Positions 10,518-61,495 of a DNA stretch of 64,000 nucleotides are shown in pieces. The stretch lies in the NCBI GenBank assembly GCA_021796335.1, contig JAJYHZ010000001.1, positions 331,870-395,869 on the forward strand. Reading direction: 5' to 3'. The DNA is from a bacterium (GTDB lineage Bacteria > Patescibacteriota > Minisyncoccia > UBA6257 > UBA9933). The notes beneath the pieces are model-generated. The model made no database searches. It worked only from the letters and a program-made list of their open reading frames with translations, and was not told the origin of the DNA. Positions within the stretch are counted from its first letter, which is position 1; every line of letters begins with the position of its first letter. A program made the position numbers and the translations under genes.

Positions 10518-10546
10518 ATTTCTAATTCAAGTGCTGTATAAATAAA

Positions 10547-10581
10547 AATCCATCCGCCGCGGCGGATGGATTTTTATTTTA
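10547..10581. terminator. Bidirectional rho-independent terminator between convergent genes
   Basis: Stem AUCCAUCCGCCGC/GCGGCGGAUGGAU flanked by A-rich and T-rich runs. Confidence 0.6.
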
Positions 10582-18403: not shown

Positions 18404-19147
18404 TTAAATCTTCCAATCGTCTATTTTAAAATCTCCGTTTTTTTTAACCGTGAAATATGCTTTCAAAAAAGCTTTTATATATGAAAACTCCAGAGACATT
18501 CCCTCCTTTTCAAACCGTCGCGGAGAACTTTTCACTGCTATCTTGGGATCAAAAACAACTCTTCCTTTTTTCCGGCTGATTATCATTGCTATGATTGCAT
18601 CATCTCCCCAAAACATCAAAGGAGGCAACCCGCCTATTTTGTCTAAAACTTCCTTTTTTACGGCAAAATTCCCGCCGATAATAACTCCCCCTTTTCGCCC
18701 GAAAACAAACAACAGTAATTTATCGACTTTCGGTAAAAATAAATCCGTAAAAATATGATTTGCCAAATTTTTAATTCCTTTGAATCCGTAATCAAATGGT
18801 CCCGAAACAGCAGCAACTTTTTCATCTTTAAAATCATTTTCTATCTTCGACAACCAATTTGCTGGCGCAATCGAATCCGCATCTAAAAAAGCGATTATTT
18901 CGCCCTCTGATTCCAAATAACCTCTGTTTCGCGCCATATTAGTCCCCCTTTTTGTTTCCAGTATGACTTTGTCGGCTCCCGATTTTTTCGCGATTTCCGA
19001 GGTCTTATCCGTCGAATTATTATCAACCGCAATTATCTCATAATCCCCGCGATTTATCTTCTGGTTTAAGAGACTTTTTATCGCCTGTTCGATATGCTTT
19101 TCCTCGTTATGCGCCGGTATTACAACTGAAAATTTCATCTCACACAT
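18404..19147 (-). CDS. GT2 family glycosyltransferase (polyprenol-phosphate sugar transferase-like), copy 1
   Basis: VVIPAHNEE...DNNSTD...FLDADS (DxD); ~240-aa DPM1/GtrB-like minimal GT-A. Confidence 0.8.
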   Translation of the reverse strand: MCEMKFSVVIPAHNEEKHIEQAIKSLLNQKINRGDYEIIAVDNNSTDKTSEIAKKSGADKVILETKRGTNMARNRGYLESEGEIIAFLDADSIAPANWLSKIENDFKDEKVAAVSGPFDYGFKGIKNLANHIFTDLFLPKVDKLLLFVFGRKGGVIIGGNFAVKKEVLDKIGGLPPLMFWGDDAIIAMIISRKKGRVVFDPKIAVKSSPRRFEKEGMSLEFSYIKAFLKAYFTVKKNGDFKIDDWKI

Positions 19148-19279
19148 AACTCCCGTCAGAGCGTCACAAAGTTATTCTTTGAATCTGCCCAATCCTTTAA
19201 CGTGAAGCCTTAATGTTTTCTTTCGACTAAAATAATTATCATTTATCGATTTTAGCAAATAAACGAAAAATAATTTGGA

Positions 19280-19299
19280 GAAGTTATGTGCGGAATTCA
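19280..19299 (-). promoter_or_regulatory. Conserved 20-nt motif ATGAATTCCGCACATAACTT, copy 1 of 3, ~135 nt upstream of the GT2 start
   Basis: Near-identical 20-mers at 22832-22851 and 27499-27518, all in the same orientation upstream of minus-strand genes. Confidence 0.4.
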
Positions 19300-19302
19300 T
19301 TA

Positions 19303-19941
19303 TCATTTTTTAATTTTTCTTTTTTTTCTAAAATAAAAAAACAAAACTGCCAAAACTGCTATAACAGCGACTGATATGTATATTCTTAATAAGCTGGGCA
19401 AAATGCTATAGCTCTTTCCTATTATATAACCAAGCATTATGAACTGACCAATGCCGAGTATTACTCCGGGAATATTAAATTCCAAAAATTTATCAAAAGC
19501 AAGATTAAAAGTTCCTGCTATAAAGGGCATAATCCATGAAAGCGGCCCGGCCAATCTGGCAGCAAAAACCGCGAAATTTCCGTATTTGTTGAAAAAATTT
19601 TCACCCCGTTGATAATTTTTTTCTGAAAAAATTCTGTTAAAAACCCGCCGCTTGTTTAAATACAAGAAAAAGCGGCTGCCCACTTTTCTACCGATCCAAA
19701 AATTAGTGCTGTCTCCCGATATGCCTCCCAAATATAAAGCCAATAATACAAACCATAAATTCAGATAACCTATCGCGACTAAAAATCCTCCTCCCACGAA
19801 AAAAATTTCTCCGTAGACAAACGGCGAAGTTATTATCAAAGTTTCAAAATAAGACCCCAAGAACAATATCAAGTAAGCATAGTGCTGATGCGTAAAAATC
19901 CATTGAACAAACGAATTAACTGCCGCTGGCAATGATAGCAT
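19303..19941 (-). CDS. DedA/VTT family membrane protein, copy 1
   Basis: Multi-TM with the DedA signature region (F.E....SPFVYGE...G). Confidence 0.7.
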   Translation of the reverse strand: MLSLPAAVNSFVQWIFTHQHYAYLILFLGSYFETLIITSPFVYGEIFFVGGGFLVAIGYLNLWFVLLALYLGGISGDSTNFWIGRKVGSRFFLYLNKRRVFNRIFSEKNYQRGENFFNKYGNFAVFAARLAGPLSWIMPFIAGTFNLAFDKFLEFNIPGVILGIGQFIMLGYIIGKSYSILPSLLRIYISVAVIAVLAVLFFYFRKKRKIKK

Positions 19942-19950
19942 TTTTATTTA

Positions 19951-20661
19951 TTATTCGAAATCCTTGTTAAAAAATACTTTTAAATATTCCACGATGTAAT
20001 TAAAAATCATTTTTGAAAAACCGTATTTTTCAAACCTTCTCGTGGAACTTCTGACCAATAAATCGGGATCAAAAAGCACTTTCCCGACCTTGCGGCTTAT
20101 TAACATTGCAACAGCCGCATCGTCCCCCCAATATTTCAAAGGAGGCAATCCGCCGATTTTTTCCAATGCAATGCGTTTTGCCGCAAAATTTCCGCCGAAA
20201 ATCATTCCGTTTTTTCTTCCGAAAACGACTCTTAAGACGTCCAAACCGAAACCTAATAAATATTTATCATAGAATCTTAGAAGAAAATAAGGAAGCCCCT
20301 TAACTCCGTACTCATAAGGACCGGAAACAGCCGCCACTCCTTTTTTATTGAGATCCTCATCAATTTTTTCAAGCCAGTTAGGTATCGGACTTGAATCCGC
20401 ATCCAAAAACGCTACTATTTCCCCCTTCGAAATTTTAAATCCCGCCTGTCTGGCAATATTTGTGCCCTTTTCCGGCTCTTTTATTACCACATCCGCCCCT
20501 TCTTTTTTAGCCTCTTCGTACGTGTTATCCGTAGAATTATTATCGACAACTATAATTTCAAATTCGCTTCTGTCAACGACATTCTGCTCTTTCAAAGCTC
20601 TTATCGAGTTCTTAACATACTTTTCCTCGTTGTATGCCGGAATCACTATACTATATTTCAT
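19951..20661 (-). CDS. GT2 family glycosyltransferase, copy 2 (paralog of 18404..19147)
   Basis: Colinear with copy 1 (IVIPAYNEE...DNNSTD...FLDADS...GGNFA). Confidence 0.8.
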   Translation of the reverse strand: MKYSIVIPAYNEEKYVKNSIRALKEQNVVDRSEFEIIVVDNNSTDNTYEEAKKEGADVVIKEPEKGTNIARQAGFKISKGEIVAFLDADSSPIPNWLEKIDEDLNKKGVAAVSGPYEYGVKGLPYFLLRFYDKYLLGFGLDVLRVVFGRKNGMIFGGNFAAKRIALEKIGGLPPLKYWGDDAAVAMLISRKVGKVLFDPDLLVRSSTRRFEKYGFSKMIFNYIVEYLKVFFNKDFE

Positions 20662-21262
20662 GGTTTTTCCTTTTTCTGATATGCCTGAAAATTTTCTTAA
20701 ATCCTAAAATCATTAGGAATATTATAACTAAAATAATTACTATTCTCATAAGCCCTAACTTTACGATTACGGAATTCCATTCCTTCCCAAGTAGTCTGCC
20801 TAAAATCGCGTAACCACCGCTCCAGGTTATCGCCGATAATAAAACCGTAGTTAAAAATACTCTGGGCGGGATTTGAATCAATCCCGCGGCAACGGAAACA
20901 TAACCCCTTGCATAAGGTATCAGCCTTCCCAGATAAATTTCCGTTTTTCCTCTTTTGGATATTTTTTCTTTAAAAGAGTCGATTTTTCCAACCGGCAGCC
21001 ATTTCGGCGACTTTTTTTCCAATTCCATTCCGAAAAAATAAAAAACAAAGTATAGAATGGAAGTCCCCGTAAAATCTCCGGCAACCACTGTCAGAAATAC
21101 CAGCGGAAAACTCAAAACCCCCATATAAGCTAGATAGCCGGAAAATAATAGAACCAGTTCGTTCGGAACAGGATTGGGCACTCCGATTTCCTGCAGAAAA
21201 ACCAGTAGGAAAATCGCCAGATATCCGTGATGTGTTATATATGAAACAATATCAGCCGGCAT
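20651..21262 (-). CDS. DedA/VTT family membrane protein, copy 2
   Basis: Paralog of 19303..19941; its stop overlaps the GT2 copy-2 start by 11 nt. Confidence 0.7.
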   Translation of the reverse strand: MPADIVSYITHHGYLAIFLLVFLQEIGVPNPVPNELVLLFSGYLAYMGVLSFPLVFLTVVAGDFTGTSILYFVFYFFGMELEKKSPKWLPVGKIDSFKEKISKRGKTEIYLGRLIPYARGYVSVAAGLIQIPPRVFLTTVLLSAITWSGGYAILGRLLGKEWNSVIVKLGLMRIVIILVIIFLMILGFKKIFRHIRKRKNHEI

Positions 21263-21285
21263 ATCTGATGAGTATAAACCATTTT

Positions 21286-22083
21286 TTATCGAGAAAGAAG
21301 AAGCATAACCGGATCATGGTCGGAAAGAGCCGGCTTTAAATGAATAGGCGAGTAAGAATCGATTTTGAAATTATATTTTGTGATATTTTTCACGAAAATA
21401 TAATCGAGCCGCGCCGATTTTTTCGTCCTCAGCCTGTTAACAAGGGGATTTTCCAACCTGTAACTCGGTATTATAATCTCTTCTTTGACCAAAACCGGAT
21501 GGATAAATCCGTTTTCTAAAAACAGCTGGGCGTCTTCGGTGTCCGTAATGCCATGCTGATTTAAATCACCCGTAAAAATTGCGGGTAATTCCTTGCGCCT
21601 GGAAACAATTTCGAAAATTCTTTTTAGCTGGCTTGAACGTATCTTCTGGTCGAAATTATAGTCTCCGGAGTGTAAATGACTATTTACCACGTATAACGAT
21701 CCCGCCGGAGTTTCCAAAACTGCCTCCAGAATACCTTTCCTGCCGAAATATTCAAAGATTGAATATTCGAAAATCTTAAAAGGCGTAAATTTATCCTCTT
21801 TTATTTTGAATTTCGAAAATATAACCAAGCCGCCGGTTGTATCCAGAATCGTGAACGGCACCAATCTTTTTTTGTCGAGTCCCCGAGTCGCGTAATAGCC
21901 TTTGGACGCTAAAAAATTATATATTAATTTTCTGTCATCGACATCAAACGATTCTTGCAAGCAAATTATGTCCGCGTCCAGTTCCGATAAATATTTTGCT
22001 ATAAGCCCGACTCTTTTGTACCTTTCTTTTACGAATAAGAACGGAAGGTCCCAGATATTGAAACTGATTATCTTCATAGTCAT
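21286..22083 (-). CDS. Endonuclease/exonuclease/phosphatase (EEP) family protein
   Basis: N-terminal SFNIW, LQE motif, C-terminal SDHDPVMLLL. Confidence 0.75.
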   Translation of the reverse strand: MTMKIISFNIWDLPFLFVKERYKRVGLIAKYLSELDADIICLQESFDVDDRKLIYNFLASKGYYATRGLDKKRLVPFTILDTTGGLVIFSKFKIKEDKFTPFKIFEYSIFEYFGRKGILEAVLETPAGSLYVVNSHLHSGDYNFDQKIRSSQLKRIFEIVSRRKELPAIFTGDLNQHGITDTEDAQLFLENGFIHPVLVKEEIIIPSYRLENPLVNRLRTKKSARLDYIFVKNITKYNFKIDSYSPIHLKPALSDHDPVMLLLSR

Positions 22084-22284
22084 TATTTTTTATTTTAAAC
22101 CAAAAATAAGAGCAAGAAAAATTTTCCTCTATTTTTAGGCCAGGTAAGAGATAAAATGGAGAATCTTGTATTTTGGACGAGTAATACCGCAGCGAAGGCT
22201 TAAAACAACTAGCTTACTGCAAATTATGTGAATGAAAAGAGTTGCGACTACGCTCCAGAATTTTATTCCAGCAAGACCTTCATT

Positions 22285-22725
22285 TTAATTTGAACTTGAA
22301 TTTGTCGCCGGCCTTAATTGAATTGTCTGAGCAGTAATACTACCATCCGAATTTTGAGTTCCCGAAACAAAAATTTGGGATCCCGTTTGAATGTCGGCGC
22401 TTGAACCACTTACAGGCTTAGTTATGGCAGTAGAAGACGAGTAAAAAACGATTTCCGAGCTCCCATCCTTTAATTTCACGGTTATACTCTGGCTATCTTT
22501 TGATAATACATTTCCACTGATAACATTTCCACCGTTCTGCGTACCGCCCCGAAAACTGCCGATGCCCGAACCGCGCAATGATTGCAATAATTGCATCTTT
22601 TGGCTCTGCGGCATATTTTGAATATCCTGAGCCGTAATATTTTTTCCGGAAGAACCGGATCCGATAAAAAATCCCGCTATCCCGACCACTACCGCAATTA
22701 TCGCCGTTACATAATTTCTTTTCAT
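22285..22725 (-). CDS. Secreted DUF5666-like Ser/Gly-rich protein
   Basis: Signal anchor; motif ITVKLKDGSSEIVFYSSSTAITK. Confidence 0.45.
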   Translation of the reverse strand: MKRNYVTAIIAVVVGIAGFFIGSGSSGKNITAQDIQNMPQSQKMQLLQSLRGSGIGSFRGGTQNGGNVISGNVLSKDSQSITVKLKDGSSEIVFYSSSTAITKPVSGSSADIQTGSQIFVSGTQNSDGSITAQTIQLRPATNSSSN

Positions 22726-22831
22726 CCCGCATGCAGCTTCTCTGTTGATTTTATAAAAATTTTATTTTTATGAAATCAGACATGAAACCCGATTAGATTT
22801 ATCCTCCCACAAATAAATTTTTATTTTAAAG

Positions 22832-22851
22832 AAATTATGCGTGGGATTCAT
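22832..22851 (-). promoter_or_regulatory. Conserved 20-nt motif ATGAATCCCACGCATAATTT, copy 2 of 3, ~110 nt upstream of 22285..22725
   Basis: See copy 1. Confidence 0.4.
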
Positions 22852-22983
22852 GATTTCTTTTCTTGTAATATCACTCGACCAAGTGATTTTATCCACATTT
22901 TTCAGAAATAATATAATATTGTTGATTAAAGAAAATTTTATTTATGTCTGTACATTTAAATTTATTTGCGAATTTCAATGGGT

Positions 22984-24198
22984 TTACTCATAGCGCAACG
23001 CTTCTATTGGATTAAGTTTCGAAGCGCGTTGTGCGGGATAATACCCGAAAACGATTCCTATTATCGCTGACACGCCAAACGCCAATAAGATTGAAAACAG
23101 CGAGACTTGCGTCGCCATTCCCATAAAATTGGAAATTAATAAAGACAGCAGAAATCCCAAAACAATTCCTAAAAATCCTCCCGCAAAAGTCAGCAGAATC
23201 GCTTCCGCTAAAAATTGTAGGTTAATATCGCGCTTCTTTGCGCCGATTGCTTTTCTTAAACCAATCTCCCGCGTCCTTTCCGTTACTGTCGTAAGCATCA
23301 TATTCATAATACCTATTCCTCCCACTATAAGTGAAATCCCCGCCACCGAAGCCAAAAGGATTGTGAATGTATTGGTAACCGATGACGCAGTTGATACGAT
23401 ATCCGCCTGATTCATGACAGAAAAATCAGCCGATTGCGGATTAGATATGCGATGCCGCGCAAGTAAAAGATCCGTTATTTGTTGCTGAATATCCGCCATA
23501 GAGTTTTGATCCGGTGCCTGAATGCTGATAGTTGAAACATAATCCACGCCAGCTAAAAGATGCTGCGCGGTCGTAATAGGTATAATTAAAAAATCATCCT
23601 GGTTTAAAAAGCCGCTCGATCCTTTTGAAACCGTAATACCGATGATATTGAAATCTATTCCGTTGATGCGCACTATTTTTCCGATAGGGTCAACTCCGTC
23701 TCCGAACAAATCGCTGGCCGTTGTCGGTCCGATTACCGCCACCCGCGCCATGCTTCGCACCTGATCGCTGGTTATAAAGGATCCTTCGGCAATGTCGTAT
23801 TTTCTTATTTGAACGTATTCCGGTGTAGTTCCTATTACCTGAGTATTCGTATTTTGCCCCGGCACGATTACCTGGTATCTCTTTGTGATATCCGGAGCGA
23901 CAGCCACGCCGCTGATATCGCTTGCTATGGCATCGGCATCAGCCTGAGTCAAAGTTGTTGCCGAACCTCTTCCGGCGCTGACTACGCCGCTACGCTGAGA
24001 TCCCGGCATGACGACAATTAAATTGGAGCCGATGGATTGAATACTCGCCTGAATAGAATTTTGCGCTCCTTGGCCGATCGCAATCATGGCGATAACCGAT
24101 CCGATTCCAATTACAATTCCAAGGATAGTCAATCCGGAACGGACTTTATTGGAGAGTAAAGCAAAAGTTGTTTCTTGTAATAGGTCAGAATAATCCAT
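22984..24198 (-). CDS. ABC transporter permease, MacB/FtsX-like
   Basis: 404 aa with N-terminal TM, large periplasmic domain and C-terminal 3 TM FtsX domain. Confidence 0.85.
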   Translation of the reverse strand: MDYSDLLQETTFALLSNKVRSGLTILGIVIGIGSVIAMIAIGQGAQNSIQASIQSIGSNLIVVMPGSQRSGVVSAGRGSATTLTQADADAIASDISGVAVAPDITKRYQVIVPGQNTNTQVIGTTPEYVQIRKYDIAEGSFITSDQVRSMARVAVIGPTTASDLFGDGVDPIGKIVRINGIDFNIIGITVSKGSSGFLNQDDFLIIPITTAQHLLAGVDYVSTISIQAPDQNSMADIQQQITDLLLARHRISNPQSADFSVMNQADIVSTASSVTNTFTILLASVAGISLIVGGIGIMNMMLTTVTERTREIGLRKAIGAKKRDINLQFLAEAILLTFAGGFLGIVLGFLLSLLISNFMGMATQVSLFSILLAFGVSAIIGIVFGYYPAQRASKLNPIEALRYE

Positions 24199-24371
24199 TT
24201 TAAATAAAATAATATGTTTAATTTATTTCCATGCGCTATATCGTACTATATAGCACCCAAAATTGAATATTGATTTTTTATTTGATCGTCGCAAATTAAA
24301 AATTTTCATAATTTCTTCATTCTTTCCACAATTCAAATTTTCAACTTCATAATAATTTGTCATTACGGACT

Positions 24372-25073
24372 TTATAACTTTATAACTCGCTTATTTTCAT
24401 TCTTCTTGTCTTCCAGAACCGACCCGTCTTTAATATGAATAATTCTTTCCGCATGTTCGGCCACATAAGGTTCATGCGTAATAAGCACAACTGTTTTCCC
24501 TTCTGCATTTAATCTCTGGAACGTTCCCAAGACAATGTCTCCTGTTTTCGTATCCAGATTGCCGGTCGGTTCGTCCGCCAGAATAAGCGACGGACTGTTC
24601 ACCAATGCGCGGGCGATTGCCACTCTTTGCATCTGCCCTCCTGAAAGCTGGTTTGAAAGGTTGTAAAATCTTGACTCGTCAAATCCCGCACTTCTAAGCG
24701 CTTTAATTGCTCTTTCTTCCCTTTCTTTCTTGGGAATACCCGCGTATATCAAAGGCAAGGAAACGTTTCTTACTACGGTAGCTCTCGGCAAAAGATTAAA
24801 GGCTTGAAAAACAAAACCGATTTTATTTTTCCGTATATCGGCCAATTCATCGTCAGAGAATTTTGAAACATCTTTACCGTCCAAAAAATATTCGCCACTA
24901 CTGGGCGAATCAAGTGCGCCTAAAATATGCATTATCGTCGACTTGCCCGAACCGGATGGACCCATTATCGCCACAAATTCGCCGTCTTTTATTGTAAAAG
25001 AAATCCCTTTCAAAACTTTGGCTTCAACGCCGCCGGGATAATATGATTTTGTAATATTTTTAATTTCTATCAT
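24372..25073 (-). CDS. ABC transporter ATP-binding protein (MacB/LolD-type)
   Basis: [35 protein letters not shown]. Confidence 0.9.
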
Positions 25074-25240
25074 GAAAATAGTTTATAAAGTTATAATATT
25101 CATAAAGTTTGTAATATTTTTATAATGATAAACTTTAGATTCATATTCACTTTATTAACTTTAAAATATAAAGTCCCAATCTAATATCTGACGATCGTCA
25201 AATATTAGATTGGTTATACACATTGACATATGAAATTATT

Positions 25241-26896
25241 TTAACCACCAAATCCGCCGAGCATTCTGAAGCCGCGGCCGCCCGCCGCTGGACTTTTATT
25301 TGCAGACGCATTATTAGTTGTCGCATTTGTCGCCGCGGATCCGGCAATTATCCTTGTCACAACATTATCCCCCTCATTAACCCCGCTTAAAATTTCCGTA
25401 TTCGTATCGTTTTGAATTCCCGTCTGAACCGGCATTTGCGAAACGCTGCCATCCTTGTTTAAAACCTGAACATAACTGCTGTTTCCCTGCGTTTTTATCG
25501 CGCTATTTAGAACATATAAAGTATCTTGCTTTATATCGGTGATAATTGATGTATTTACGGTCATTCCCGGCTTCACACTGTTTAAATCCGTATTAAACCC
25601 TATCTGCACGTTATAAGTGGTAACTCCCTGACTAACAGTTCCCACAACATCAATTTGATCAACCGTTCCCGCCAAAGTTAAATTAGGGAGAGCGTCAAAA
25701 GACAAGGTTGCTTTTTGCCCCAACTTTACGTTGGCGGCATCAACTTCGTTTAATGAAATCTCGGCGATTTTTTGCTTGGTTATCAAAGTTACAGCCGCCG
25801 AAGATGAATCGGTCTGTTGGCCGGGGATTAAATTCACTTGCGCAACTTGCCCGTCAAAAGGAGCCGTTATCACGGTATTGCTCAAAGAATTTTCCGCAAC
25901 CTGCACCTGTGCATTAGCGCTATCTACCTGAGCTTGAGCCGCTGCCAAATCTTCCGAAGTTGCCGGCTGTACCTTTAAATTGTAATTTGCTTGAGCTTGA
26001 TTCAAAGATATCTGTGCCGAATCGATTTGCTGCTGAGCGCTTTCAATCGCCTGAGTCTGACTTTGCAAAGCAGTTTGATAAGCGTTGTAATTGGTTAAAT
26101 AATTACTCGCCGCTTTATTCGGAAGCGTAATCGTCCATGAATCATTTACATTTATTCCGCTTGGAAATTGAATGTATAATCCTTTGGTGCCGAATGGCGT
26201 TGGAATACCGTAATTGATTTGATTGCCGCCGATATTTTCCAAACCGCTTATAGAATAGTAATCGGGCTTTGTGCTAAACGAGCTGTGCAAGGTTATCACA
26301 TACTGACCTTCCTGCTGCCCGCTATATGTTCCGGTTATTGTCGGCGATGAAGATGAAATATTATTTATATCCGGAGCGGCGGAAATATCGGAATTCAAAT
26401 AATTTCTGTATGCGTTATTAACTGCTATCTGCTGCTGATTCTTCACATTATCCAAATTCTGCTTGGCATTATTGAGCGCAAGCTGCGCGGCATCAACCGA
26501 CGATTGACTTACGGCAACATCCGCATTAGTTGCACCTGCCGCCAACTTTTGGTAGCTGGCCTGCGCGCTTTCCAATCCGGCTTTTGCCTGCGCAATACTT
26601 GCCAGGGCGCTCTTCTGATCCAATACCACCAAAGTTTGACCGTCTTTTACATATTGGCCGGCTTTAACATCGACAGCAACAACAGTTCCGGAAGTCTGGG
26701 ATTTTAAATCAAGCTGGTTAGAAGGGGAAACTTGTCCAGTACCGGTTACATAAGATGTTATAGTTCCCTTCTCAACTGGAGCGGTAACATACTGCGTCGC
26801 CTGAGTGCTTGGCTTTAAAGCATAGATTCCCAACCCTATAACTGCCACACCCACAACTCCAATCAAAATTTTATGTTTTTTGGAATATTTTTTCAT
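25241..26896 (-). CDS. Periplasmic adaptor (MacA/HlyD-like) with an extended coiled coil and Gly-rich C-terminal tail
   Basis: TM anchor, lipoyl motif, long A/Q/N-rich coiled coil, barrel domains, C-terminal GGRGFRMLGGFGG. Confidence 0.7.
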   Translation of the reverse strand: MKKYSKKHKILIGVVGVAVIGLGIYALKPSTQATQYVTAPVEKGTITSYVTGTGQVSPSNQLDLKSQTSGTVVAVDVKAGQYVKDGQTLVVLDQKSALASIAQAKAGLESAQASYQKLAAGATNADVAVSQSSVDAAQLALNNAKQNLDNVKNQQQIAVNNAYRNYLNSDISAAPDINNISSSSPTITGTYSGQQEGQYVITLHSSFSTKPDYYSISGLENIGGNQINYGIPTPFGTKGLYIQFPSGINVNDSWTITLPNKAASNYLTNYNAYQTALQSQTQAIESAQQQIDSAQISLNQAQANYNLKVQPATSEDLAAAQAQVDSANAQVQVAENSLSNTVITAPFDGQVAQVNLIPGQQTDSSSAAVTLITKQKIAEISLNEVDAANVKLGQKATLSFDALPNLTLAGTVDQIDVVGTVSQGVTTYNVQIGFNTDLNSVKPGMTVNTSIITDIKQDTLYVLNSAIKTQGNSSYVQVLNKDGSVSQMPVQTGIQNDTNTEILSGVNEGDNVVTRIIAGSAATNATTNNASANKSPAAGGRGFRMLGGFGG

Positions 26897-26902
26897 AAGA
26901 AA

Positions 26903-27361
26903 TTAATTACTGTTAACCCTTATTAATCTGGCCTCAATCTGGCCCTGGTTATTCGGGGTTCCGATCGCGATAATTTGATTGTTCACTTTAATATCCTGCA
27001 GCTGCAAAGTTCCGCTTGCATCGCTAATCACCGTTGTCGATGAAGCGATAATTATTTTATCGTTGTTATCTTTATCCTTAATTGCCAAAGCATTGCCATT
27101 TATGCTTTCCACCTTTCCGACAACTCCATGAGCATTTATAAATTTCCCCCGAATAAATCCGAATGGCCCGTCTCCCGTTATCGGTCCGAAAGGCATCATT
27201 GAACCGAAATTCCTGTCGTAATTCTCTTTCCATGAATAAGAAAATCTTGCTCTGTGATAACCGACGAATACCCCGAAGCTGAATGCCAAAATCATAATTA
27301 TCAAAGATAAAATTATTCCCGCGATTATTTTTAAATTTTTTGATTCCGTTAAATTTTTCAT
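26903..27361 (-). CDS. Membrane-anchored DUF5666-like protein
   Basis: TM anchor; repeats GVVGKVESINGNALAIKD... and GTLQLQDIKVNNQIIAIG.... Confidence 0.4.
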   Translation of the reverse strand: MKNLTESKNLKIIAGIILSLIIMILAFSFGVFVGYHRARFSYSWKENYDRNFGSMMPFGPITGDGPFGFIRGKFINAHGVVGKVESINGNALAIKDKDNNDKIIIASSTTVISDASGTLQLQDIKVNNQIIAIGTPNNQGQIEARLIRVNSN

Positions 27362-27498
27362 CCCATATACGATTTCCCTCCTAAAAATTATTTTGAAAAA
27401 TAATTTTTAATTCTGAAATCATTTTTTATCTTTTTTACGTTTTATATTAAATCAATCTTAAATCCCGAATATAGTTTATCTAAACATTCAAATAAATA

Positions 27499-27518
27499 AA
27501 ATTATGCGCGGGATTCAT
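27499..27518 (-). promoter_or_regulatory. Conserved 20-nt motif ATGAATCCCGCGCATAATTT, copy 3 of 3, ~140 nt upstream of 26903..27361
   Basis: See copy 1. Confidence 0.4.
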
Positions 27519-27946: not shown

Positions 27947-28498
27947 TTATTTTGGTGCATTACCCTTTTTTCTAATCGCAAGAATCCCTCTTCTATATGT
28001 GCTTTTAACCGTATTTAAAGGCTTTTTCATCATTTCGGCAATTTCCTTAAAAGTGAATTTATCAACATCGTGAAGCGTTATAATCCGCTTATGTTCGGAA
28101 CTTAAATTGCCGAACAAAAGTTTTTTCTCATACGGGTCGTCCAGTCGGTCCAATTTTGCGGTTAAAATATCCATTAAACCATTTTCGCCGGCGTCTTTTT
28201 CCAATACAGAGAACGGGATCTCTGTTTTTTTTCTCAGCCAATCGATGCAGGTATTTTCGGCAATCGCAAAAATCCAGGTTTTAAACTTCTTTCCCTGATC
28301 GAATTTTTTGATATTTTTCCAGACTTTTATGAAAATTTCCTGGGAAATATCGGAAGCGTTATTCGGGTTTCCGGTATAGCGCCGGACAAATCCGTACATT
28401 AAAGGTAGATAGCGCTTAACCAGTTTCTCGAAAGCGATTTCATCGCCGTCCAAATACGCTTTTATCAAATCTTCATCGGAAAATTTATTTAGATCCAT
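27947..28498 (-). CDS. ECF-type RNA polymerase sigma-70 factor (start at MDLNKF; ORF-track upstream extension is probably not translated)
   Basis: Region 2 (DISQEIFIKVWKNIKKF, FKTWIFAIAENTCIDWLRK) and region 4 HTH (TFKEIAEMMKKPLNTVKSTYRRGILAIRK). Confidence 0.75.
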   Translation of the reverse strand: MDLNKFSDEDLIKAYLDGDEIAFEKLVKRYLPLMYGFVRRYTGNPNNASDISQEIFIKVWKNIKKFDQGKKFKTWIFAIAENTCIDWLRKKTEIPFSVLEKDAGENGLMDILTAKLDRLDDPYEKKLLFGNLSSEHKRIITLHDVDKFTFKEIAEMMKKPLNTVKSTYRRGILAIRKKGNAPK

Positions 28499-28572
28499 AA
28501 AATTTTGATTAACGTGATTATAGCACAAACGTTTAAATTCTATTATAAATAAAAATGTGACGAAGGTCAAAA

Positions 28573-48767: not shown

Positions 48768-48971
48768 AATATTCTTTATCAAATCAAACTTGAAACTATT
48801 TTTGAAAATAAAGATGACGCGGAAACCGAAATTATAAAGGTTATCACCTCTAAAATATCAGATAATATCGGACAATTTATAGAATTTCTGATAATTTGTC
48901 CTTCTCTGCGGTGTGTATTGGACGAAGTTCGAATGTATTTCGGACAAAATCCGCAGGATTTTGACGAATGA
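48768..48971 (+). pseudogene. Remnant of a large serine recombinase 3' end (no start; homologous to the C-terminus of recombinase 59509..61248)
   Basis: Open frame ...ETIFENKDDAETEIIKVITSKISDNIGQFIEFLIICPSL... aligns with ...ETIFENKNKAETEIIKVITSKISDNIGQFMEFLVNCPSL... of recombinase 2. Confidence 0.5.
48790..48911 (+). repeat. Direct repeat R1a (122 bp, ~88% identical to R1b at 61016-61137)
   Basis: Hand alignment; an identical 43-bp core AAATTATAAAGGTTATCACCTCTAAAATATCAGATAATATCGG. Confidence 0.7.
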
Positions 48972-49118
48972 CACTTGCGCCTCGGCCGCGCTCGACAAGC
49001 TCGCGCGGGGCAAAACCCAAAAATTTCCCATCATTTTTATTTGCGGCTCCCCCCACACCCCCGCCGCGAAGCGGAAAATTTGAAAGGAAGGAAATTTTTG
49101 GTTTTGTCGCCACCACTT
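48907..49118 (-). repeat. Inverted repeat X-A (212 bp; reverse complement of X-B 53758-53970; 1 substitution + 1 G-run indel)
   Basis: Base-by-base comparison of the reverse complement. Confidence 0.8.
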
Positions 49119-49157
49119 CACTCCTCCAAAAAGGCTTATAAGTCATATTAGCATTTT

Positions 49158-52976: not shown

Positions 52977-53759
52977 ATGGCTTTATCTAAAGAACAAGTA
53001 AATAGTGTTGAAGAAGTTTTGAAAGCAAGTTTGCGTAATAAGTTTCAAAACTATAAACCCGAACCGGCATCAATGCCTTTTCATACACGACTACTCGGCA
53101 AGGATAGACTTGCTTTATATTCTTTCATTCATTCCCTCAACACAAACTTCGGCACAAGTATTTTTGAGCCGGTCGGTCTTGCTCTGGCTCAGAAAAACTT
53201 CAAAATGGCCGTTTCGCAAGCTACAGCTGGAAATCAGATCAGTTCCGCCGCCCAAGCAGAAATTCAGAAGATTATTGATGGTCTTACAACGGCAACGAGT
53301 ACCCCTAATAAAAAAGCTGAAATTGAAAGAATAAGAAAAGTTTGTCAGACAGGAGAGATGATTAAAGTAAAACCAACAAAGGTTGATTTAATGTTTGAGT
53401 CAAAAGACGGTGCATTTTATTTGTTTGATATTAAGACTGCAAAACCAAATGCCGGCGGATTCAAAGAGTTTAAACGCACCCTGCTTGAGTGGGTTGCTGT
53501 TGTTTTGGCAAATAAACCAGATGCGAATATAAATACTTTTATTGCAATTCCTTACAATCCTTACGAGCCAGAACCCTATACTCGATGGACAATGCGAGGA
53601 ATGCTTGATCTTGAAAATGAGCTTAAAGTAGCAGACGAATTTTGGGACTTTCTCGGAGGCAAGAATACTTACAAGGACTTACTCGATTGTTTCGAGCGTG
53701 TAGGTATTGAGTTGAGAGATGAAATTGATGACTACTTTAAGCGCTTCAACAAGAAATAA
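52977..53759 (+). CDS. Type II restriction endonuclease-like, PD-(D/E)XK (TdeIII-like)
   Basis: 4 bp after the MTase; PD...D-I-K (VDLMFESKDGAFYLFDIKTAKPN); size/pattern of small Type IIP REases. Confidence 0.55.
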   Translation: MALSKEQVNSVEEVLKASLRNKFQNYKPEPASMPFHTRLLGKDRLALYSFIHSLNTNFGTSIFEPVGLALAQKNFKMAVSQATAGNQISSAAQAEIQKIIDGLTTATSTPNKKAEIERIRKVCQTGEMIKVKPTKVDLMFESKDGAFYLFDIKTAKPNAGGFKEFKRTLLEWVAVVLANKPDANINTFIAIPYNPYEPEPYTRWTMRGMLDLENELKVADEFWDFLGGKNTYKDLLDCFERVGIELRDEIDDYFKRFNKK

Positions 53760-53970
53760 GTGGCGGCGACAAAACCAAAAATTTCCTTCCTTTCAAATTT
53801 TCCGCTTCGCGGCGGGGGGTGTGGGGGGAGCCGCAAATAAAAATGATGGGAAATTTTTGGGTTTTGCCCCGCGCGAGCTTGTCGAGCGCGGCCGAGGCGC
53901 AAGTGTCATTCGTCAAAATCCTGCGGATTTTGTCCGAAATACATTCGAACTTCGTCCAATACACACCGCA
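53758..53970 (+). repeat. Inverted repeat X-B (213 bp; partner of X-A), starting at the REase stop codon
   Basis: See X-A. Confidence 0.8.
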
Positions 53971-54085
53971 AAAATTGAAAATCGGAATTGGAAGCCGAAA
54001 TGGGGTCGCGCCGCAGGCGCGACACAAACGCATTCCCGCCAAAAATTCCCGAATCCAAAAGGTTTTTCCACGCTCCGCGTGGCTC
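53966..54085 (+). repeat. Inverted repeat Y-B (120 bp; identical reverse-complement partner Y-C at 55487-55606), immediately upstream of recombinase 1
   Basis: Base-by-base comparison. Confidence 0.8.
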
Positions 54086-59392: not shown

Positions 59393-59508
59393 TAAACAAC
59401 ATCATTTCACGAGTCAAACTTGACTCGCAAACAATGCTACAAACTCTCAAAATAAGCCTATTGCGCTATTTTCAGCAAAGTAATAATATCGTCGTAATAA
59501 CAAACTTT

Positions 59509-61248
59509 ATGGACACCGAAACCAAGCTCAAATACATCTCCTACACCCGAAAAAGCACTGAAAGCGAGGACAGGCAGATTTTATCGTTAGATGATCAAGA
59601 AAAAGAATTGAAGGTTATTGAAAAACGCAATAATTTGAATATCGTCCAAAGATTTGCCGGAACTTCCAACGGCGAAAGCCAATCCGCCCATAAAAGAGGC
59701 AGGCCGATATTTAATTTCATAATGGGTCAGATCGATAAAGGCAAAGCCAACGCTTTATTAGTTTGGCATCCCAACAGATTAGCCAGAAACGCTTATGACG
59801 GAGGTTTGATTATAACTTTAATGGATGAAAATAAGTTAATTGAAGTAAAAACCGCCCATAGGACTTATTCCAATACTCCGGAGGATAAATTTATGCTCCA
59901 ATTGGAATTCGGCATGGCCAAGAAATCATCGGACGACAACAGCGTTGCCGTAAAAAGAGGGTTAAAAACAAAACTGGAAATGGGTTGGTATCCCAGTAGA
60001 GCGCCGTTAGGATATTTGAATTCAATAACCAAAGAAAAAGGATCAAATGAAATAATCAAAGATCCTGAAAGGTTTGAATTAATAAAAAGAATGTGGCAAA
60101 TGATGATTACAGGAAATTATACTCCGCCTCAAATATTACAAATTGCCAACAAGGAATGGAATTTGAAAACCAGACCGACCAAGAAATACGCAGGGCTAAA
60201 ATCTTTATCCCGAAGCGCGATTTATAAAATCTTCACTAATCCTTTTTATTACGGATTTTTTGAGTATCACAATAATTTATACAAAGGCAATCACGAACCA
60301 ATGATAACCGAGGAGGAATTTGACCGCGTGCAAAAATTCTTAGGCAGACGAGGAAATCCCAGAGCCATAACAAAACGTTTCGCTTTTACCGGATTAATGA
60401 AATGCGGAAATTGCGGAGCCATGATAACCGCCGAGGAGAAAACCAAAAGGCAAAAGAACGGCAATGTCCACCATTATGTTTATTACAGGTGTACCAAAAG
60501 AAAAGACGAACATTGCCCTGAAAAAGCTATAAGGTTAGACGAATTAAATAATCAAATAAACCAGATAATCAACGCCTTAACAATCTCTGACGAATTCAGA
60601 AATTGGGCCATTAAATACCTGCACGAAATAAGAAAAACCCAAGCTAAGGCTAATGAAAAAGGAATTGAAAACAAGCAAAAGGAATTAACCAGAATTATAA
60701 AGCAATTAGACAGCCTTTTACTCAAATACACGGCTCCGGAAAATTCAGACGGAAATCTTATCTCAAGCGACGAATATCAAGCTCTCAAAACCCGCCTTAT
60801 TAAGCAAAAATTAGCCCTTGAAAGCGATTTAACGGATCAAGGAAAGCAAATCAACGAATGGGTTGAATTAAGCGAAAGAACGTTCAATTTTGCCAGATAC
60901 GCGAGCATCCATTTCAACAACGGAGATATGGAAACCAAAAGAGCTATTTTCGCATGCTTAGGTTCTCACCTTATTATAAAAAATCAAAAACTGAGCATTG
61001 ATCTGCATCCAATGTTTGAAACTATTTTTGAAAATAAGAATAAAGCAGAAACTGAAATTATAAAGGTTATCACCTCTAAAATATCAGATAATATCGGGCA
61101 ATTTATGGAATTTTTGGTAAATTGTCCTTCGTTGCGGAGGCGGAAGGATTCGAACCTTCGAGAGGATTTCTCCCCTAACATCTTAGCAGGATGCTGCTTT
61201 AAACCACTCAGCCACGCCTCCACACTAATTGAGTTTAGGAAATATTAA
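59509..61248 (+). CDS. Large serine recombinase 2 (start MDTETKLKYISYTRKST...; C-terminal boundary uncertain because the ORF reads through the antisense tRNA-Ser)
   Basis: YTRKSTESEDRQ, LLVWHPNRLARN, zinc ribbon MKCGNCGAM...YYRCTKRKDEHC, C-terminal coiled coil; colinear with recombinase 1. Confidence 0.8.
   Translation: MDTETKLKYISYTRKSTESEDRQILSLDDQEKELKVIEKRNNLNIVQRFAGTSNGESQSAHKRGRPIFNFIMGQIDKGKANALLVWHPNRLARNAYDGGLIITLMDENKLIEVKTAHRTYSNTPEDKFMLQLEFGMAKKSSDDNSVAVKRGLKTKLEMGWYPSRAPLGYLNSITKEKGSNEIIKDPERFELIKRMWQMMITGNYTPPQILQIANKEWNLKTRPTKKYAGLKSLSRSAIYKIFTNPFYYGFFEYHNNLYKGNHEPMITEEEFDRVQKFLGRRGNPRAITKRFAFTGLMKCGNCGAMITAEEKTKRQKNGNVHHYVYYRCTKRKDEHCPEKAIRLDELNNQINQIINALTISDEFRNWAIKYLHEIRKTQAKANEKGIENKQKELTRIIKQLDSLLLKYTAPENSDGNLISSDEYQALKTRLIKQKLALESDLTDQGKQINEWVELSERTFNFARYASIHFNNGDMETKRAIFACLGSHLIIKNQKLSIDLHPMFETIFENKNKAETEIIKVITSKISDNIGQFMEFLVNCPSLRRRKDSNLREDFSPNILAGCCFKPLSHASTLIEFRKY
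61016..61137 (+). repeat. Direct repeat R1b (122 bp; partner of R1a), the 3' end of recombinase 2, abutting the tRNA-Ser 3' end
   Basis: See R1a. Confidence 0.7.
61135..61221 (-). tRNA. tRNA-Ser (anticodon GCU), long variable arm
   Basis: Hand fold: acceptor GGAGGCG/CGCCUCC, D-stem GCU/AGC, anticodon stem GCAUC/GAUGU with loop CUGCUAA, variable arm AGGGGA-GAAA-UCCUCU, T-arm GAAGG-UUCGAAU-CCUUC, discriminator G. Confidence 0.7.
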
Positions 61249-61495
61249 AAGTATCTTCAAGCCTTCTCTTTAATTGCCCTAAAGCTCTCGCGTTCAGTTT
61301 TAAATTATGTTCTCGTTTTCTCGCGTCATTTTCAGAAAGATAGGCTTCATAATAAATTAATTTAAACGGTATTCTTGATTTTGTAGAAATTGATCTCCCT
61401 GAATTATGCTCTCCAATTCTTCTCCGTAAATTATCAGTGGAACCAATATAAAAGTCATTATCTTTTAAGCTTTTTAGAATATAAACAAAGAACAT
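61235..61495 (-). CDS. Small GIY-YIG nuclease-domain protein (COG2827/YhbQ-like)
   Basis: FFVYILKSLKDNDFYIGSTDNLRRRIGEHN + conserved E...N; flanked by 17-bp inverted repeats AAACTCAATTAGTGTGG (61218-61234 rc / 61503-61519). Confidence 0.65.
   Translation of the reverse strand: MFFVYILKSLKDNDFYIGSTDNLRRRIGEHNSGRSISTKSRIPFKLIYYEAYLSENDARKREHNLKLNARALGQLKRRLEDTFNIS

Follow-up and report, generated by a model that had tools for sequence, protein, structure and literature searches.

Repeated 20-nt motifs before envelope genes of a Patescibacteria genome as probable left arms of eroded, MITE-like gene-start insertion elements

In a 64,000-nucleotide stretch of a Patescibacteriota contig (the window), three 20-nt motifs lie upstream of envelope-related genes. 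These motifs are probably the left arms, together with the left direct repeat, of three old and partly eroded MITE-like palindromic insertion elements located at gene starts, whose family is widespread among ultra-small Patescibacteria (CPR). The window copies are degenerate members of this family, and not an ECF promoter or operator.

Results

The three copies in the window

A search of the window with ATGAATYCCRCRCATAAYTT returned matches with 0 mismatches at 19281-19300, 22832-22851 and 27499-27518, all on the minus strand, on which the flanking genes are encoded as well. When up to 3 mismatches were allowed, 100 dinucleotide shuffles of the window gave a mean of 0.16 matches and never 4. 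A fourth match, at 43600 on the plus strand with 3 mismatches, looks like a chance occurrence. The exact matches bear out the threefold repeat in one orientation that had been described in an earlier note on this DNA; its coordinates for copies 2 and 3 stand, and those for copy 1 (19280-19299) are shifted by one base. The downstream genes that it named, a GT2 glycosyltransferase (18404-19147) and two DUF5666-like proteins (22285-22725 and 26903-27361), were also recovered. From motif to start codon, the distance is 133 nt for copy 1 (142 nt if the probable true start at 19138 is taken), 106 nt for copy 2 and 137 nt for copy 3. What all three copies share is essentially the 20-mer alone, with one further short block common to copies 2 and 3, and the view that conservation acts on the nucleic acid rather than on a peptide holds.

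Three features had been overlooked. A partial reverse complement of the motif precedes each downstream start codon (GGGAGTTATGTGTGAG-ATGAA, GCATGCGGG-ATGAA and TATATGGG-ATGAA); ATGAA forms a direct repeat at both ends of each window copy; and the upstream gene has its stop codon next to the motif, or overlapping it, in copies 1 and 3 (Table 1). The TGA of the DedA/VTT gene lies at 19303-19305, upstream of copy 1, and that of the putative anti-sigma gene (27515-27517) falls inside the ATGA of copy 3. Copy 2 begins 133 nt past the stop of a MacB/FtsX permease gene.

Copy 1 is the best preserved in the window, with both arms present and 2 mismatches between its left arm and the family consensus ATGAATCCCACACATAACTT. 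A long-range helix of 16 bp is kept in both its predicted MFE and centroid structures; the fold of the whole element is not significantly more stable than those of shuffles (z = -1.34). The GT2 start given by the ORF finder, 19147, falls within the right arm, and the true start is probably the ATG of the right direct repeat, from which the protein would begin MKFSVVIP.... The MFE structure of copy 2 pairs AUCCC..GCAU with AUGC-GGGAU, and proximal GTGTGGGAT partners like that of copy 2 are present in many family members. The right arms of copies 2 and 3 have decayed and the left arms are much better kept, a difference that may reflect a separate role of the left arm that depends on its sequence.

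Table 1. Insertion elements, their parts and a related coding cassette in the window
Feature	Position	Strand	Description
Element copy 1	19134-19300	-	167 nt, from left ATGAAT to right ATGAA; between DedA/VTT gene and GT2 gene
Copy 1 left flank and left arm	19277-19300	-	ATGAAT-TCCGCACATAACTT-CTCC; 20-mer plus 4 extra paired bases
Copy 1 right arm	19139-19154	-	GGGAGTTATGTGTGAG, directly 5' of start codon; 1 mismatch to GTTATGTGTGGGATGAA
Copy 1 right direct repeat ATGAA	19134-19138	-	Native N-termini across the family begin at the equivalent ATG
Element copy 2	22721-22851	-	131 nt; upstream of DUF5666 gene 22285-22725; right arm eroded
Copy 2 left flank and left arm	22832-22851	-	ATGAAT-CCCACGCATAATTT
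Copy 2 proximal partner	22806-22819	-	AATTTATTTGTGGG; local pairing with left arm possible
Copy 2 right-arm remnant	22721-22734	-	GCATGCGGG plus direct repeat/start codon ATGAA
Element copy 3	27357-27518	-	162 nt; between putative anti-sigma gene and DUF5666 gene 26903-27361; right arm eroded
Copy 3 left flank and left arm	27499-27518	-	ATGAAT-CCCGCGCATAATTT
Copy 3 proximal partner	27460-27469	-	TTCGGGATTT, pairs with UGAAUCCCG (MFE and centroid fold)
Copy 3 right-arm remnant	27357-27369	-	TATATGGG plus direct repeat/start codon ATGAA
Related coding cassette	61220-61529	-	GIY-YIG ORF between arms, at tRNA-Ser 5' end
Cassette direct repeat	61521-61529	-	GGAGGCGTG; equals first 9 nt of tRNA-Ser
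Cassette left arm	61501-61520	-	CCCCCACACTAATTGAGTTT
Cassette GIY-YIG ORF	61235-61495	-	86 aa; PF01541, E=3.5e-16
Cassette right arm	61220-61236	-	AAACTCAATTAGTGTGG; abuts base 1 of tRNA-Ser (61134-61221)

Architecture and pairing of the arms

Across the family, the consensus of the 20-mer is ATGAAT-CCCACACATAACTT. About 115-140 nt further on comes its inverted partner, AAGTTATGTGTGGG-ATGAA, directly at the native start codon of housekeeping genes that are unrelated to one another. The canonical element, of about 115-140 nt, reads [ATGAA]T-CCCACACATAACTT(GYAC), a variable interior, and (GYRC)AAGTTATGTGTGGG-[ATGAA], with arms of the form CCCACAC.../...GTGTGGG. Most elements measure 112-141 nt (131-167 nt for the window copies), and short hairpin-only versions of 43-76 nt exist. 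At the loci examined, the 20-mer is always paired with its inverted partner at the start codon; the right arm, AAGTTATGTGTGGGATGAA, lies 93-122 nt downstream of the left arm and has 0 mismatches in most loci. Because the element sits exactly at the start codon, the first five bases of the gene (ATGAA) are present at both ends. The downstream ORFs all read (V)QVMCGM[K/N], and the native N-termini start at the last ATG, which is that of the right repeat (for instance, in L3, L24, L9 and SSB). The 20-mer stands directly behind a co-directional gene in 36 of 52 cases, often with the TGA of its ATGA as the stop of that gene.

The arms pair as a helix of 20-22 bp, in which the A and U of the start codon take part. 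Among 52 distinct copies, 92.9% of cells are paired, versus 28-52% when the partners are slid, and double changes occur at 9 helix pairs; for example, pair 21:48 is GC in 28 copies, AU in 20, UA in 2, CG in 1 and GU in 1, and is unpaired in none. The observed values were matched by 0 of 500 shuffles. On the sense strand there are 28 G.U pairs versus 9 A.C pairs. As judged from these alignments, compensatory changes, and changes that allow G.U pairs on the sense strand, keep the arms paired. The canonical elements have predicted folding energies of -42 to -52 kcal/mol (z = -5.3 to -6.9). Interiors differ strongly, even inside one genome, and the arms are near-invariant between lineages.

Distribution of the family

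Family loci number about 40 in Patescibacteria genomes, plus 31 in metagenomes. The genome scan gave 48 loci, about 40 of them in CPR-labelled MAGs; two MAGs hold at least 11 and at least 7 copies, respectively. The 6 matches outside CPR are mostly located within ORFs and are compatible with chance. When viral contigs were searched for both full arms, neither turned up. The genes behind the elements are unrelated and encode ribosomal proteins, a tRNA synthetase, ClpB, PolA, FtsH and others. At gathering score, Rfam covariance models detected only tRNAs, rRNA and RNase P in the window and in 18 loci, and the best sub-threshold matches (E about 0.2) were to unrelated families. A description of this family is absent from Rfam and from the literature searched.

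Insertion at gene starts

Filled and empty orthologous sites differ by a 5-bp ATGAA duplication. For instance, the rplN/rplX junction is empty in L096 (GTAGTATGAAAGTC) and filled in L044 (GTGGTATGAAT[CCC...GGG]ATGAAAGTC); similarly, the rplP/rpmC junction is filled in L044 and empty in L095, L096 and L099. The ribosomal-protein operon of L044 carries two copies that are 100% identical over 127 nt and have different flanks; four copies on one contig have interiors that are 85-90% identical and different neighbours. The same junction is independently occupied by other arm families in L064, L095 and L099. Non-consensus flanks are still direct repeats (ATGGAT/ATGGAT, GTGGAC/GTGGAC and ATGAAG/ATGAAG), and the interior keeps a fixed orientation with respect to the downstream gene (plus/plus in 34 of 34 comparisons). 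On the basis of these sequence comparisons, the element is inserted DNA, present in many copies and recently copied. The duplication model is not exact, since the sixth base of the left flank is almost always T, whatever the sixth base of the gene, and one copy (L044a) has a left flank that is inverted, not direct.

A syntenic relative, L049, has the same cluster as the window (ECF sigma, anti-sigma, DUF5666, MacAB, DUF5666, DedA and GT) without any of the three window copies; its corresponding junctions are of 3, 61 and 12 nt and contain no core match.

Versions encoding a GIY-YIG protein

Long versions of 304-307 nt have identical arms with an ORF of 85-86 aa between them that encodes a GIY-YIG protein; in L003, L028, L029 and L031 this ORF lies exactly between the arms, with a different neighbour each time. 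The window holds a related cassette (I6), whose 21-nt arms are 95% complementary, at the 5' end of a tRNA-Ser gene (Table 1). Homologous cassettes occur at the 5' ends (base 1) of tRNAs in other CPR genomes, with CCCCCACACYAATTGAG arms and direct repeats of 7-9 nt. The GIY-YIG homologues are 65-80% identical across lineages, versus a maximum of 53% for the HlyD of the window, and their closest solved relatives are the UPF0213 proteins 1zg2 and 1ywl. ORF-less derivatives are more numerous than coding copies.

With GIY-YIG homing genes of the T4 seg type and with UPF0213/YhbQ, this protein shares the PF01541 catalytic domain (E about 1e-16), an intergenic position between conserved genes and signs of horizontal spread. 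It differs from homing enzymes in its length of about 86 aa, which leaves no separate DNA-binding domain, and in being enclosed by inverted and direct repeats; homing, like any other activity of the protein, is putative. No transposase of a known family or IS-family link to the element was seen, and we know of no GIY-YIG nuclease that transposes DNA or is recognised as a transposase. We infer that the best candidate for an enzyme that mobilises the element is the GIY-YIG protein.

Discussion

Comparison with known elements

The element resembles MITEs in several respects. It is small (below about 500 bp), and in ORF-less versions the only ORFs are short, variable uORFs. It has terminal inverted repeats, of which 16 bp are left in window copy 1 and which are eroded in copies 2 and 3, and a target-site duplication in which the left sixth base is usually T and one flank is inverted. 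It is also multi-copy, with presence/absence polymorphism at orthologous sites.

The Neisseria MITE known as CREE or NEMIS is co-transcribed as a long hairpin, which RNase III may either bind or cleave, and affects neighbouring expression (PMC2649163, PMC2229807). Both elements are of about 100-160 bp, non-coding and multi-copy, with terminal inverted repeats and short direct repeats near gene starts. However, CREE shows no tie to start codons and the sequence that it duplicates is TA, whereas the present element duplicates ATGAA; CREE also contains an IHF site, and its ends create promoters. RNase III action is a property of CREE, and for the present element it is only proposed. We know of no CREE that carries a GIY-YIG gene. 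Identity with the Correia element is ruled out by the unrelated arm sequence (a 26-bp Correia repeat in CREE), the ATGAA duplication and the hosts, Patescibacteria instead of Neisseria, so that the resemblance is functional only. Identity with REP/BIME, a short palindrome (20-40 nt) with a conserved 5' GTAG that flanks a RAYT (Y1) gene, was also rejected on the arm sequences, which have no GTAG head and begin with CCC.

Rickettsia palindromic elements are described, in a passage of PMC10969869 citing Ogata 2000 and 2002, as selfish elements of about 100-150 bp in reduced genomes, with stable hairpins and gene-compatible positions. They lie in frame inside coding sequences and are translated, whereas the present element stands outside the ORF at its first codon, with ATGAA duplicated. 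Among insertions in CPR rRNA genes, GIY-YIG ORFs occur in non-intron sequences, and many ORF-less insertions are under 200 bp (PMC11270868). The ends of rRNA intervening sequences (IVS), like those of the present element, pair into a long helix, and the host RNA therefore still works after excision by RNase III. Compared by description, the IVS and CPR insertions lie within rRNA genes, whereas the present elements target the start codons of mRNAs and the 5' ends of tRNAs.

Alternative explanations

The earlier note favoured a shared promoter, operator or ECF-sigma target co-regulating three envelope genes. In its favour are three same-strand copies near an ECF sigma/anti-sigma pair and a -10-like hexamer (CATAAT or TAACTT) in the motif. 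This reading is unsupported and, in our judgment, extremely improbable. In other CPR lineages, the identical motif is found before dozens of housekeeping genes with no relation to each other; it makes up one side of a helix, the start-codon region being the other side, and it mostly abuts the stop of a co-directional upstream gene. A scan with a sigma-70-like consensus found no promoter-like site at any of the three copies, no motif copy lies upstream of the ECF sigma gene itself (27947-28570), and the L049 cluster retains the ECF pair without the motif. The fallback readings of the same note, a small repeat that is mobile or the beginning of a conserved leader, were essentially right. It is very doubtful that the element is a place where a tyrosine recombinase acts, in the manner of Xer/dif or integron attC, to exchange genes or cassettes. 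The attC R''/R' boxes are RYYYAAC/GTTRRRY, and the core of dif arms is CATAA/TTATG; the CATAAC ... GTTATG of the present arms is close to both. Like attC (57-141 nt), the element is an imperfect palindrome of similar size in which structure rather than sequence is under selection; its ends are conserved, its centre varies, and it is located after a stop and before the next start. The direct repeat of ATGAA, in which only the left copy is followed by the element's T, agrees with a crossover within a short core. However, neither an integrase, an attI nor a cassette array lies next to the copies, which have core housekeeping operons as neighbours; the helix is paired throughout and lacks the unpaired spacer and extrahelical bases that define attC; and the GIY-YIG nuclease is the only associated protein. 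Identity with integron attC was rejected, since the boxes match at 6/7 positions (ACATAAC/GTTATGT) but the helix is continuous, the neighbours are ribosomal and core genes, and there is no array.

A cis-regulatory leader RNA selected by the host, with mobility secondary or absent, is also unlikely, albeit less so than either of these. In such a leader, the left AUGAAU would start a uORF lacking a Shine-Dalgarno sequence (MNPTHNL...), through termination-reinitiation at AUGA overlaps or leaderless initiation; its translation would melt the helix masking the real start, with the proximal GTGTGGGAT partner as the alternative fold, a logic like that of an erm-type leader or a ribosome shunt. The covarying helix that takes in part of the start codon, its sense-strand G.U excess, the near-invariance of the arms despite interior divergence and the better conservation of the left arms in the window agree with this. 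In addition, what comes before the left ATG is a stop overlap (TGA within ATGA, 11 cases), an SD-like run or a -10-like hexamer at 6-12 nt, and 6 of 6 elements of 133 or 136 nt have a uORF of 43-44 codons ending at a UGA that overlaps the main AUG. However, uORF length is otherwise unconstrained (8-44 codons), no Rfam family matched in the window and loci searched, and the associated genes have no common function, which argues against a riboswitch-like regulon. In close relatives, the orthologous junctions carry no insert and the genes share just an ATGA overlap. Identical copies 1 kb apart, together with different arm families at the same junction, point to insertion events.

Implications

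Some features weigh against the preferred reading of gene-start insertion elements. Recent transposition by itself would not give near-invariant arms around a variable interior, a pattern which suggests that the arms are selected in situ or that a cassette-like mechanism operates. The near-exclusive location at start codons is stronger than a preference for ATGAA targets combined with purifying selection obviously predicts.

We propose that the element would be co-transcribed with the downstream gene, and that the original promoter, Shine-Dalgarno sequence or upstream stop would remain joined to the left ATGAA copy. The long helix would loop the insert out of the mRNA, setting the old initiation signals beside the real AUG; alternatively, it may serve as an RNase III site through which the insert would be removed from the mRNA. 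By either route the insertion would be tolerated and the gene still expressed, and the element may modulate its translation.

The window copies and the element to which they belong

The degenerate 20-mer ATGAATYCCRCRCATAAYTT matched the window at 19281-19300, 22832-22851 and 27499-27518 with no mismatches, compared with the 0.16 matches expected by chance in shuffled sequence when three mismatches are allowed. The three copies described in the earlier note, near an ECF sigma pair and upstream of envelope and secreted-protein genes, are therefore real, and all lie on the minus strand, as does the coding sequence of every neighbouring gene. The likeness among the three upstream regions is essentially restricted to the 20-mer, with one extra short block common to copies 2 and 3. 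The 135-aa ORF that follows the ECF sigma gene has no Pfam match and is presumed to encode the anti-sigma factor.

A genome scan for the 20-mer, with one genome per species, returned 48 loci. About 40 of them are in MAGs that bear the label Saccharibacteria, Paceibacterota, Sungiibacteriota or Patescibacteria; one MAG holds at least 11 copies, and a second at least seven. These lineage labels are loose, because the L14 proteins of the MAGs labelled "Saccharibacteria" are closest to Sungbacteria. The six matches outside the Patescibacteria (CPR) fall mostly within ORFs, as chance predicts. Nearly all downstream ORFs "begin" with (V)QVMCGM[K/N], encoded by GTGCAAGTTATGTGTGGGATGAA, the reverse complement of the motif, and the last ATG marks the native N-terminus (for instance, L3 MKALLG... 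and L24 MKVKKGD..., and likewise L9, SSB, RRF, ClpB, PolA, FtsH, TyrRS and others). This right arm is exact at most loci, 93-122 nt 3' of the left arm, and the full architecture reads ATGAAT-CCCACACATAACTT(GYAC) ... variable interior ... (GYRC)AAGTTATGTGTGGG-ATGAAn. Variants include short versions of 43-76 nt that consist of the hairpin alone, copies in tandem and forms of 304-307 nt.

A scan of metagenomes with two 14-nt cores as query, unbiased for the flanks, added 32 elements with the same flanks. The left flank is ATGAAT in most of these, and the right flank ATGAA[A/C/T]. Several arm families are known (CCCACACATAACTT, CCCGTTAGAG and CCCCCACACYAATTGAG), and every one seen starts with CCC and ends with GGG beside the gene start. 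Carriage by phages was rejected, since the 14-mer cores gave only chance single matches in viral contigs (the architecture in 0 of 120 loci) and both full arms had no match in the viral collection.

Within the window, none of the three copies has lost its left ATGAAT or the ATGAA of the start codon, and the substitutions of copy 1 relative to the consensus are mostly G.U-compatible. The true GT2 start is most probably 19138 (MKFSVV...), with the ORF-finder's 19147 falling within the right arm. The left arms of the three copies match one another at 16-19 of 20 positions, while decay has gone much further in the right arms of copies 2 and 3; this difference suggests that the left arm may have a sequence-specific role besides pairing with the distal arm. 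To look for further elements in the window, whether of this or of another arm family, relaxed motif searches and a generic direct-repeat and inverted-repeat scan at gene starts were run; between them they yielded only copy 1 and a cassette with a GIY-YIG nuclease ORF between its arms.

Other repeats were recorded in this part of the window. A 140-nt direct repeat (73% identity, 18507-18646 versus 20027-20166) lies within the neighbouring ORFs 18404-19147 and 19951-20661, probably a pair of glycosyltransferase paralogues. Two palindromes with no spacer, perfect or nearly so, occur at 10540-10579 (20-nt arms) and 25176-25213 (19-nt arms); the latter falls between the HlyD and ABC ATPase genes and has a terminator-like score.

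Features of the window associated with the palindromic element
Feature	Positions	Strand	Basis or remarks
GT2 glycosyltransferase	18404-19147	minus	Pfam
DedA/VTT	19303-19941	minus	Pfam
DUF5666-like protein	22285-22725	minus	Pfam
MacB-type permease	22984-24198	minus	Pfam
ABC ATPase and HlyD adaptor	same neighbourhood		Pfam
DUF5666-like protein	26903-27361	minus	Pfam
ECF sigma	27947-28570	minus	Pfam
Copy 1	19134-19300	minus	right arm GGGAGTTATGTGTGAG kept; 16-bp long-range helix in MFE and centroid
Copy 2	22721-22851	minus	start-adjacent remnant only, GCATGCGGG; proximal partner can pair with left arm
Copy 3	27357-27518	minus	start-adjacent remnant only, TATATGGG; proximal partner can pair with left arm
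GIY-YIG cassette	61220-61529	minus	86-aa UPF0213-like gene; adjoins 5' end of tRNA-Ser 61134-61221

Insertion and duplication at gene starts

Comparison of related loci reveals that the palindromes, which have inverted ends, are DNA that was inserted and duplicated at gene starts. In locus L096, whose L14 is 93% identical to that of locus L044, rplN and rplX overlap by ATGA at an empty junction (...GTAGTATGAAAGTCAAAAAAGG); the same junction is filled in L044 (...GTGGTATGAAT[CCC...GGG]ATGAAAGTCAAAAAAGG), and a 5-bp duplication of ATGAA surrounds the element. Likewise, the rplP/rpmC junction measures 2-4 nt in L095, L096 and L099, and holds an element in L044. The two L044 copies are 100% identical across 127 nt with unrelated flanks, an identity that shows their copying to be recent. 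A 265-kb contig carries four copies with 85-90% interior identity before different downstream genes, and other subfamilies extend across several genomes. Rare non-consensus flanks remain direct repeats (ATGGAT/ATGGAT, GTGGAC/GTGGAC), and the orientation of the interior relative to the downstream gene is fixed (plus/plus in 34 of 34 comparisons).

The rplN/rplX junction contains a CCCACAC-type element with another interior in L064, different arms (ATGAAT-CCCGTTAGAAGC...GCTTCTAACGGG-ATG) in L095, and a third palindromic insert flanked by ATGAAG/ATGAAG in L099; it is a recurrent target that was occupied independently. At rplP/rpmC, L097 has a CCCGTTAGAGA-type element. Start-codon palindromic inserts of other families at the same ribosomal-protein junctions were located at 1966-2095 in L095, 948-1154 in L097 and 1966-2046 in L099. 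In one of these families, the arms CCCGTTAGAG.../...CTCTAACGGG are preceded by ATGAAT or ATGAGT and followed by ATG(AA); another consists of a 74-nt insert flanked by ATGAAG/ATGAAG.

The nearest syntenic relative of the window among those fetched, L049 (HlyD 51% identical), has the order sigma, anti-sigma, DUF5666, HlyD, ABC, FtsX, a 148-aa protein, DedA and GT, where the 148-aa protein, without a Pfam match, takes the place of the second DUF5666 gene. Its junctions measure 3, 61 and 12 nt, and a search of L049 for the element core gave no match.

The sequences upstream of the left end are those expected if the element had hit a start codon and the original signals, be they ATGA coupling, an SD or a leaderless-type promoter, had stayed with the left ATGAA. 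In 36 of the 52 distinct elements, a co-directional ORF ends no more than 16 nt from the left end; for 11 of these 36, as for window copy 3, the stop codon is supplied by the TGA within the ATGA of the element. Of the other 16 elements, which no gene abuts, about 10 have a TANNNT hexamer (TATAAT, TACAAT, TATACT or similar) ending 6-12 nt before the left ATG, and several others have SD-like runs directly upstream. These flanks suggest that leaderless promoters and ATGA coupling may be frequent in CPR. TATAAT-like hexamers ending 6-12 nt 5' of the duplicated start codon were noted at six loci (L007, L031, L033, L043, L047 and L062), and imply that many genes in these Patescibacteria were probably leaderless before insertion.

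A conserved helix on the sense strand

An alignment of the 52 distinct elements revealed that the arms pair end to end in a helix of 20-22 bp, conserved on the sense strand and extending into the start codon, and that selection maintains this pairing. In this helix 92.9% of cells are paired, versus 28-52% with slid partners; double changes occur at nine pairs, and none of 500 column shuffles reached the observed pairing values. Four pairs directly inside the invariant core covary freely; pair 21:48, for instance, is GC in 28 elements, AU in 20, UA in two, and CG and GU in one each, with none unpaired. The helix takes in U6:A63 and A5:U64, the A and U of the start codon, and the two copies with C...G at the start-codon pair position have a GTG start. 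Canonical elements fold at -42 to -52 kcal/mol (z -5.3 to -6.9), with the long-range helix in both MFE and centroid structures. On the sense strand, 28 G.U pairs stand against nine A.C mismatches, the signature expected if the transcribed strand must fold; because the sequences are related, this excess counts as moderate evidence and falls short of a formal test.

Association with a GIY-YIG nuclease

Four long elements, each from a different MAG and each preceding a different gene, carry an ORF of 85-86 aa that exactly fills the space between the arms, has its stop codon within the right arm, and encodes a GIY-YIG domain (PF01541, E about 1e-16) of the UPF0213 type. Around the window homologue (61235-61495) lie inverted repeats of 17-21 bp (CCCCCACACTAATTGAGTTT / AAACTCAATTAGTGTGG) and a direct repeat of 9 nt that equals the first 9 nt of the adjacent tRNA-Ser. 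The same cassette design was found in four contexts sampled from other CPR genomes, at tRNA-Ser, tRNA-Trp and tRNA-Glu (direct repeats GGAGGCGTG, GGGGCATCG and GGCCCTG); in a fifth, an ORF-less CCCACACCAACTTC hairpin lies directly upstream. Homologues of the GIY-YIG protein reach 65-80% identity in many CPR lineages; the window HlyD has no homologue above 53%. Given that all arm families seen share the CCC start and the GGG end at the gene start, we hypothesize that this protein is the best candidate for recognizing or mobilizing the palindromes. A survey of CPR rRNA genes reported GIY-YIG ORFs in non-intron insertions, together with many short ORF-less insertions (PMC11270868). The two components are arranged differently in L032/L051 and L058/L080, where the GIY-YIG gene directly precedes the ORF-less element in front of frr and is not enclosed by it.

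The surroundings of the window cassette contain further repeats. A large ORF for a serine recombinase with Resolvase, Recombinase and Zn-ribbon domains (59434-61248, plus strand) extends into tRNA-Ser in antisense orientation, and G+C is low at 56-60 kb. With a 122-nt direct repeat of 89% identity (48790-48911 and 61016-61137, 12.2 kb apart), this ORF suggests that an element of about 12 kb is integrated next to tRNA-Ser. Where contigs of other samples have the same GIY-YIG gene, they terminate within about 70 nt past it. Inverted repeats of about 215 bp and 99% identity (48907-49121 and 53758-53971), which contain CCCCCCACACCCCC, enclose 4.6 kb. At about 50-56 kb the sign of the GC skew changes to positive. 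Genes beyond about 50.7 kb are on the plus strand, unlike most of the remaining window, with three minus-strand ORFs at 49.1-50.7 kb. Together these features may mark an inverted or invertible segment.

Proposed mechanism and competing explanations

A MITE-like palindromic element that targets gene starts probably explains the window copies, in line with the fallback reading of the earlier note, a leader or small mobile repeat. The earlier note's preferred roles, a promoter, operator or ECF sigma target, were rejected in view of the distribution and position of the element and of the empty syntenic relative L049, and have very little probability left. An internal outward promoter in the right arm or interior was rejected for unfit hexamer geometry; a conserved TAAAAT block in one subfamily and a CTTG block in another, inspected by eye, gave no consistent -35/-10 spacing.

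A pure host regulatory leader would share the sense-strand helix; set beside the empty junctions and identical copies, it is unlikely. A search of the window and of 18 loci against Rfam at gathering thresholds found no model for the element, and relaxing the limit to E<=1 for two elements brought no useful match. A Shine-Dalgarno sequence before the right arm was rejected, as none was consistent. A recombinase site is improbable. A short conserved peptide was also rejected: minus-strand MNPTHN(L/F) and plus-strand M(R/C)GIH run on into unrelated sequence of variable length, and no codon signal can be read in the arms because they are 100% identical at the DNA level.

For the MITE-like element we propose four steps, in order of falling confidence. 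The element would be co-transcribed with the downstream gene. The helix would then loop the insert out, so that the gene is still expressed, by either of two routes. It may move the former SD, coupling stop or 5' end close to the true AUG, much as split ribosome-binding sites are bridged by a hairpin in phage T4. Alternatively, the 20-22 bp duplex may be offered to RNase III, as in rRNA IVSs and Correia elements (PMC11270868, PMC2649163). Translation from the left AUG (uORF MNPTHNL...) may open the helix; all six elements of 133 or 136 nt have a uORF of 43-44 codons ending at a UGA that overlaps the main AUG. Finally, and with least confidence, the GIY-YIG nuclease may mobilize the element.

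A bolder reading, which we regard as possible and hold tentatively, is a new class of mobile cassette in Patescibacteria, powered by a minimal GIY-YIG nuclease of about 86 aa, that inserts at start codons or base 1 of tRNAs, duplicates the first 5-9 nt of the gene, and is self-neutralized by the 20-22 bp RNA helix, through RNase III excision or bridging of the old initiation signals to the real AUG. If so, ORF-less derivatives would by now sit among the signals that govern expression of a few per cent of genes, ribosomal-protein operons among them.

Comparison with known elements and implications

The element works like bacterial MITEs of the Correia, ERIC or RPE kind and has the structural MITE features tested here. 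In contrast to them, it is strictly tied to the first codon of a gene and duplicates ATGAA; its arms are near-invariant across lineages while its interiors are free; several arm families share CCC.../...GGG ends; and it has a GIY-YIG-bearing version and relatives at tRNA starts. The literature searched, including a 2024 review of prokaryotic MITEs, contained no description of it.

CPR genomes are tiny, tightly packed and usually called poor in mobile DNA. Our findings indicate that small palindromic insertions lie precisely between the expression signals and start codons of essential CPR genes. For annotation, gene callers run ORFs into the right arm and create spurious "VQVMCGM" or "MCEM" N-termini, GT2 included, an artefact likely present in public annotations of these genomes. 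Such repeated upstream "motifs" are not regulator binding sites, and regulon inference should therefore exclude them. The helix is a candidate global post-transcriptional feature of CPR gene expression, and the targeting of gene starts, together with a possible nuclease-only mechanism of mobilization, is now open to direct testing.
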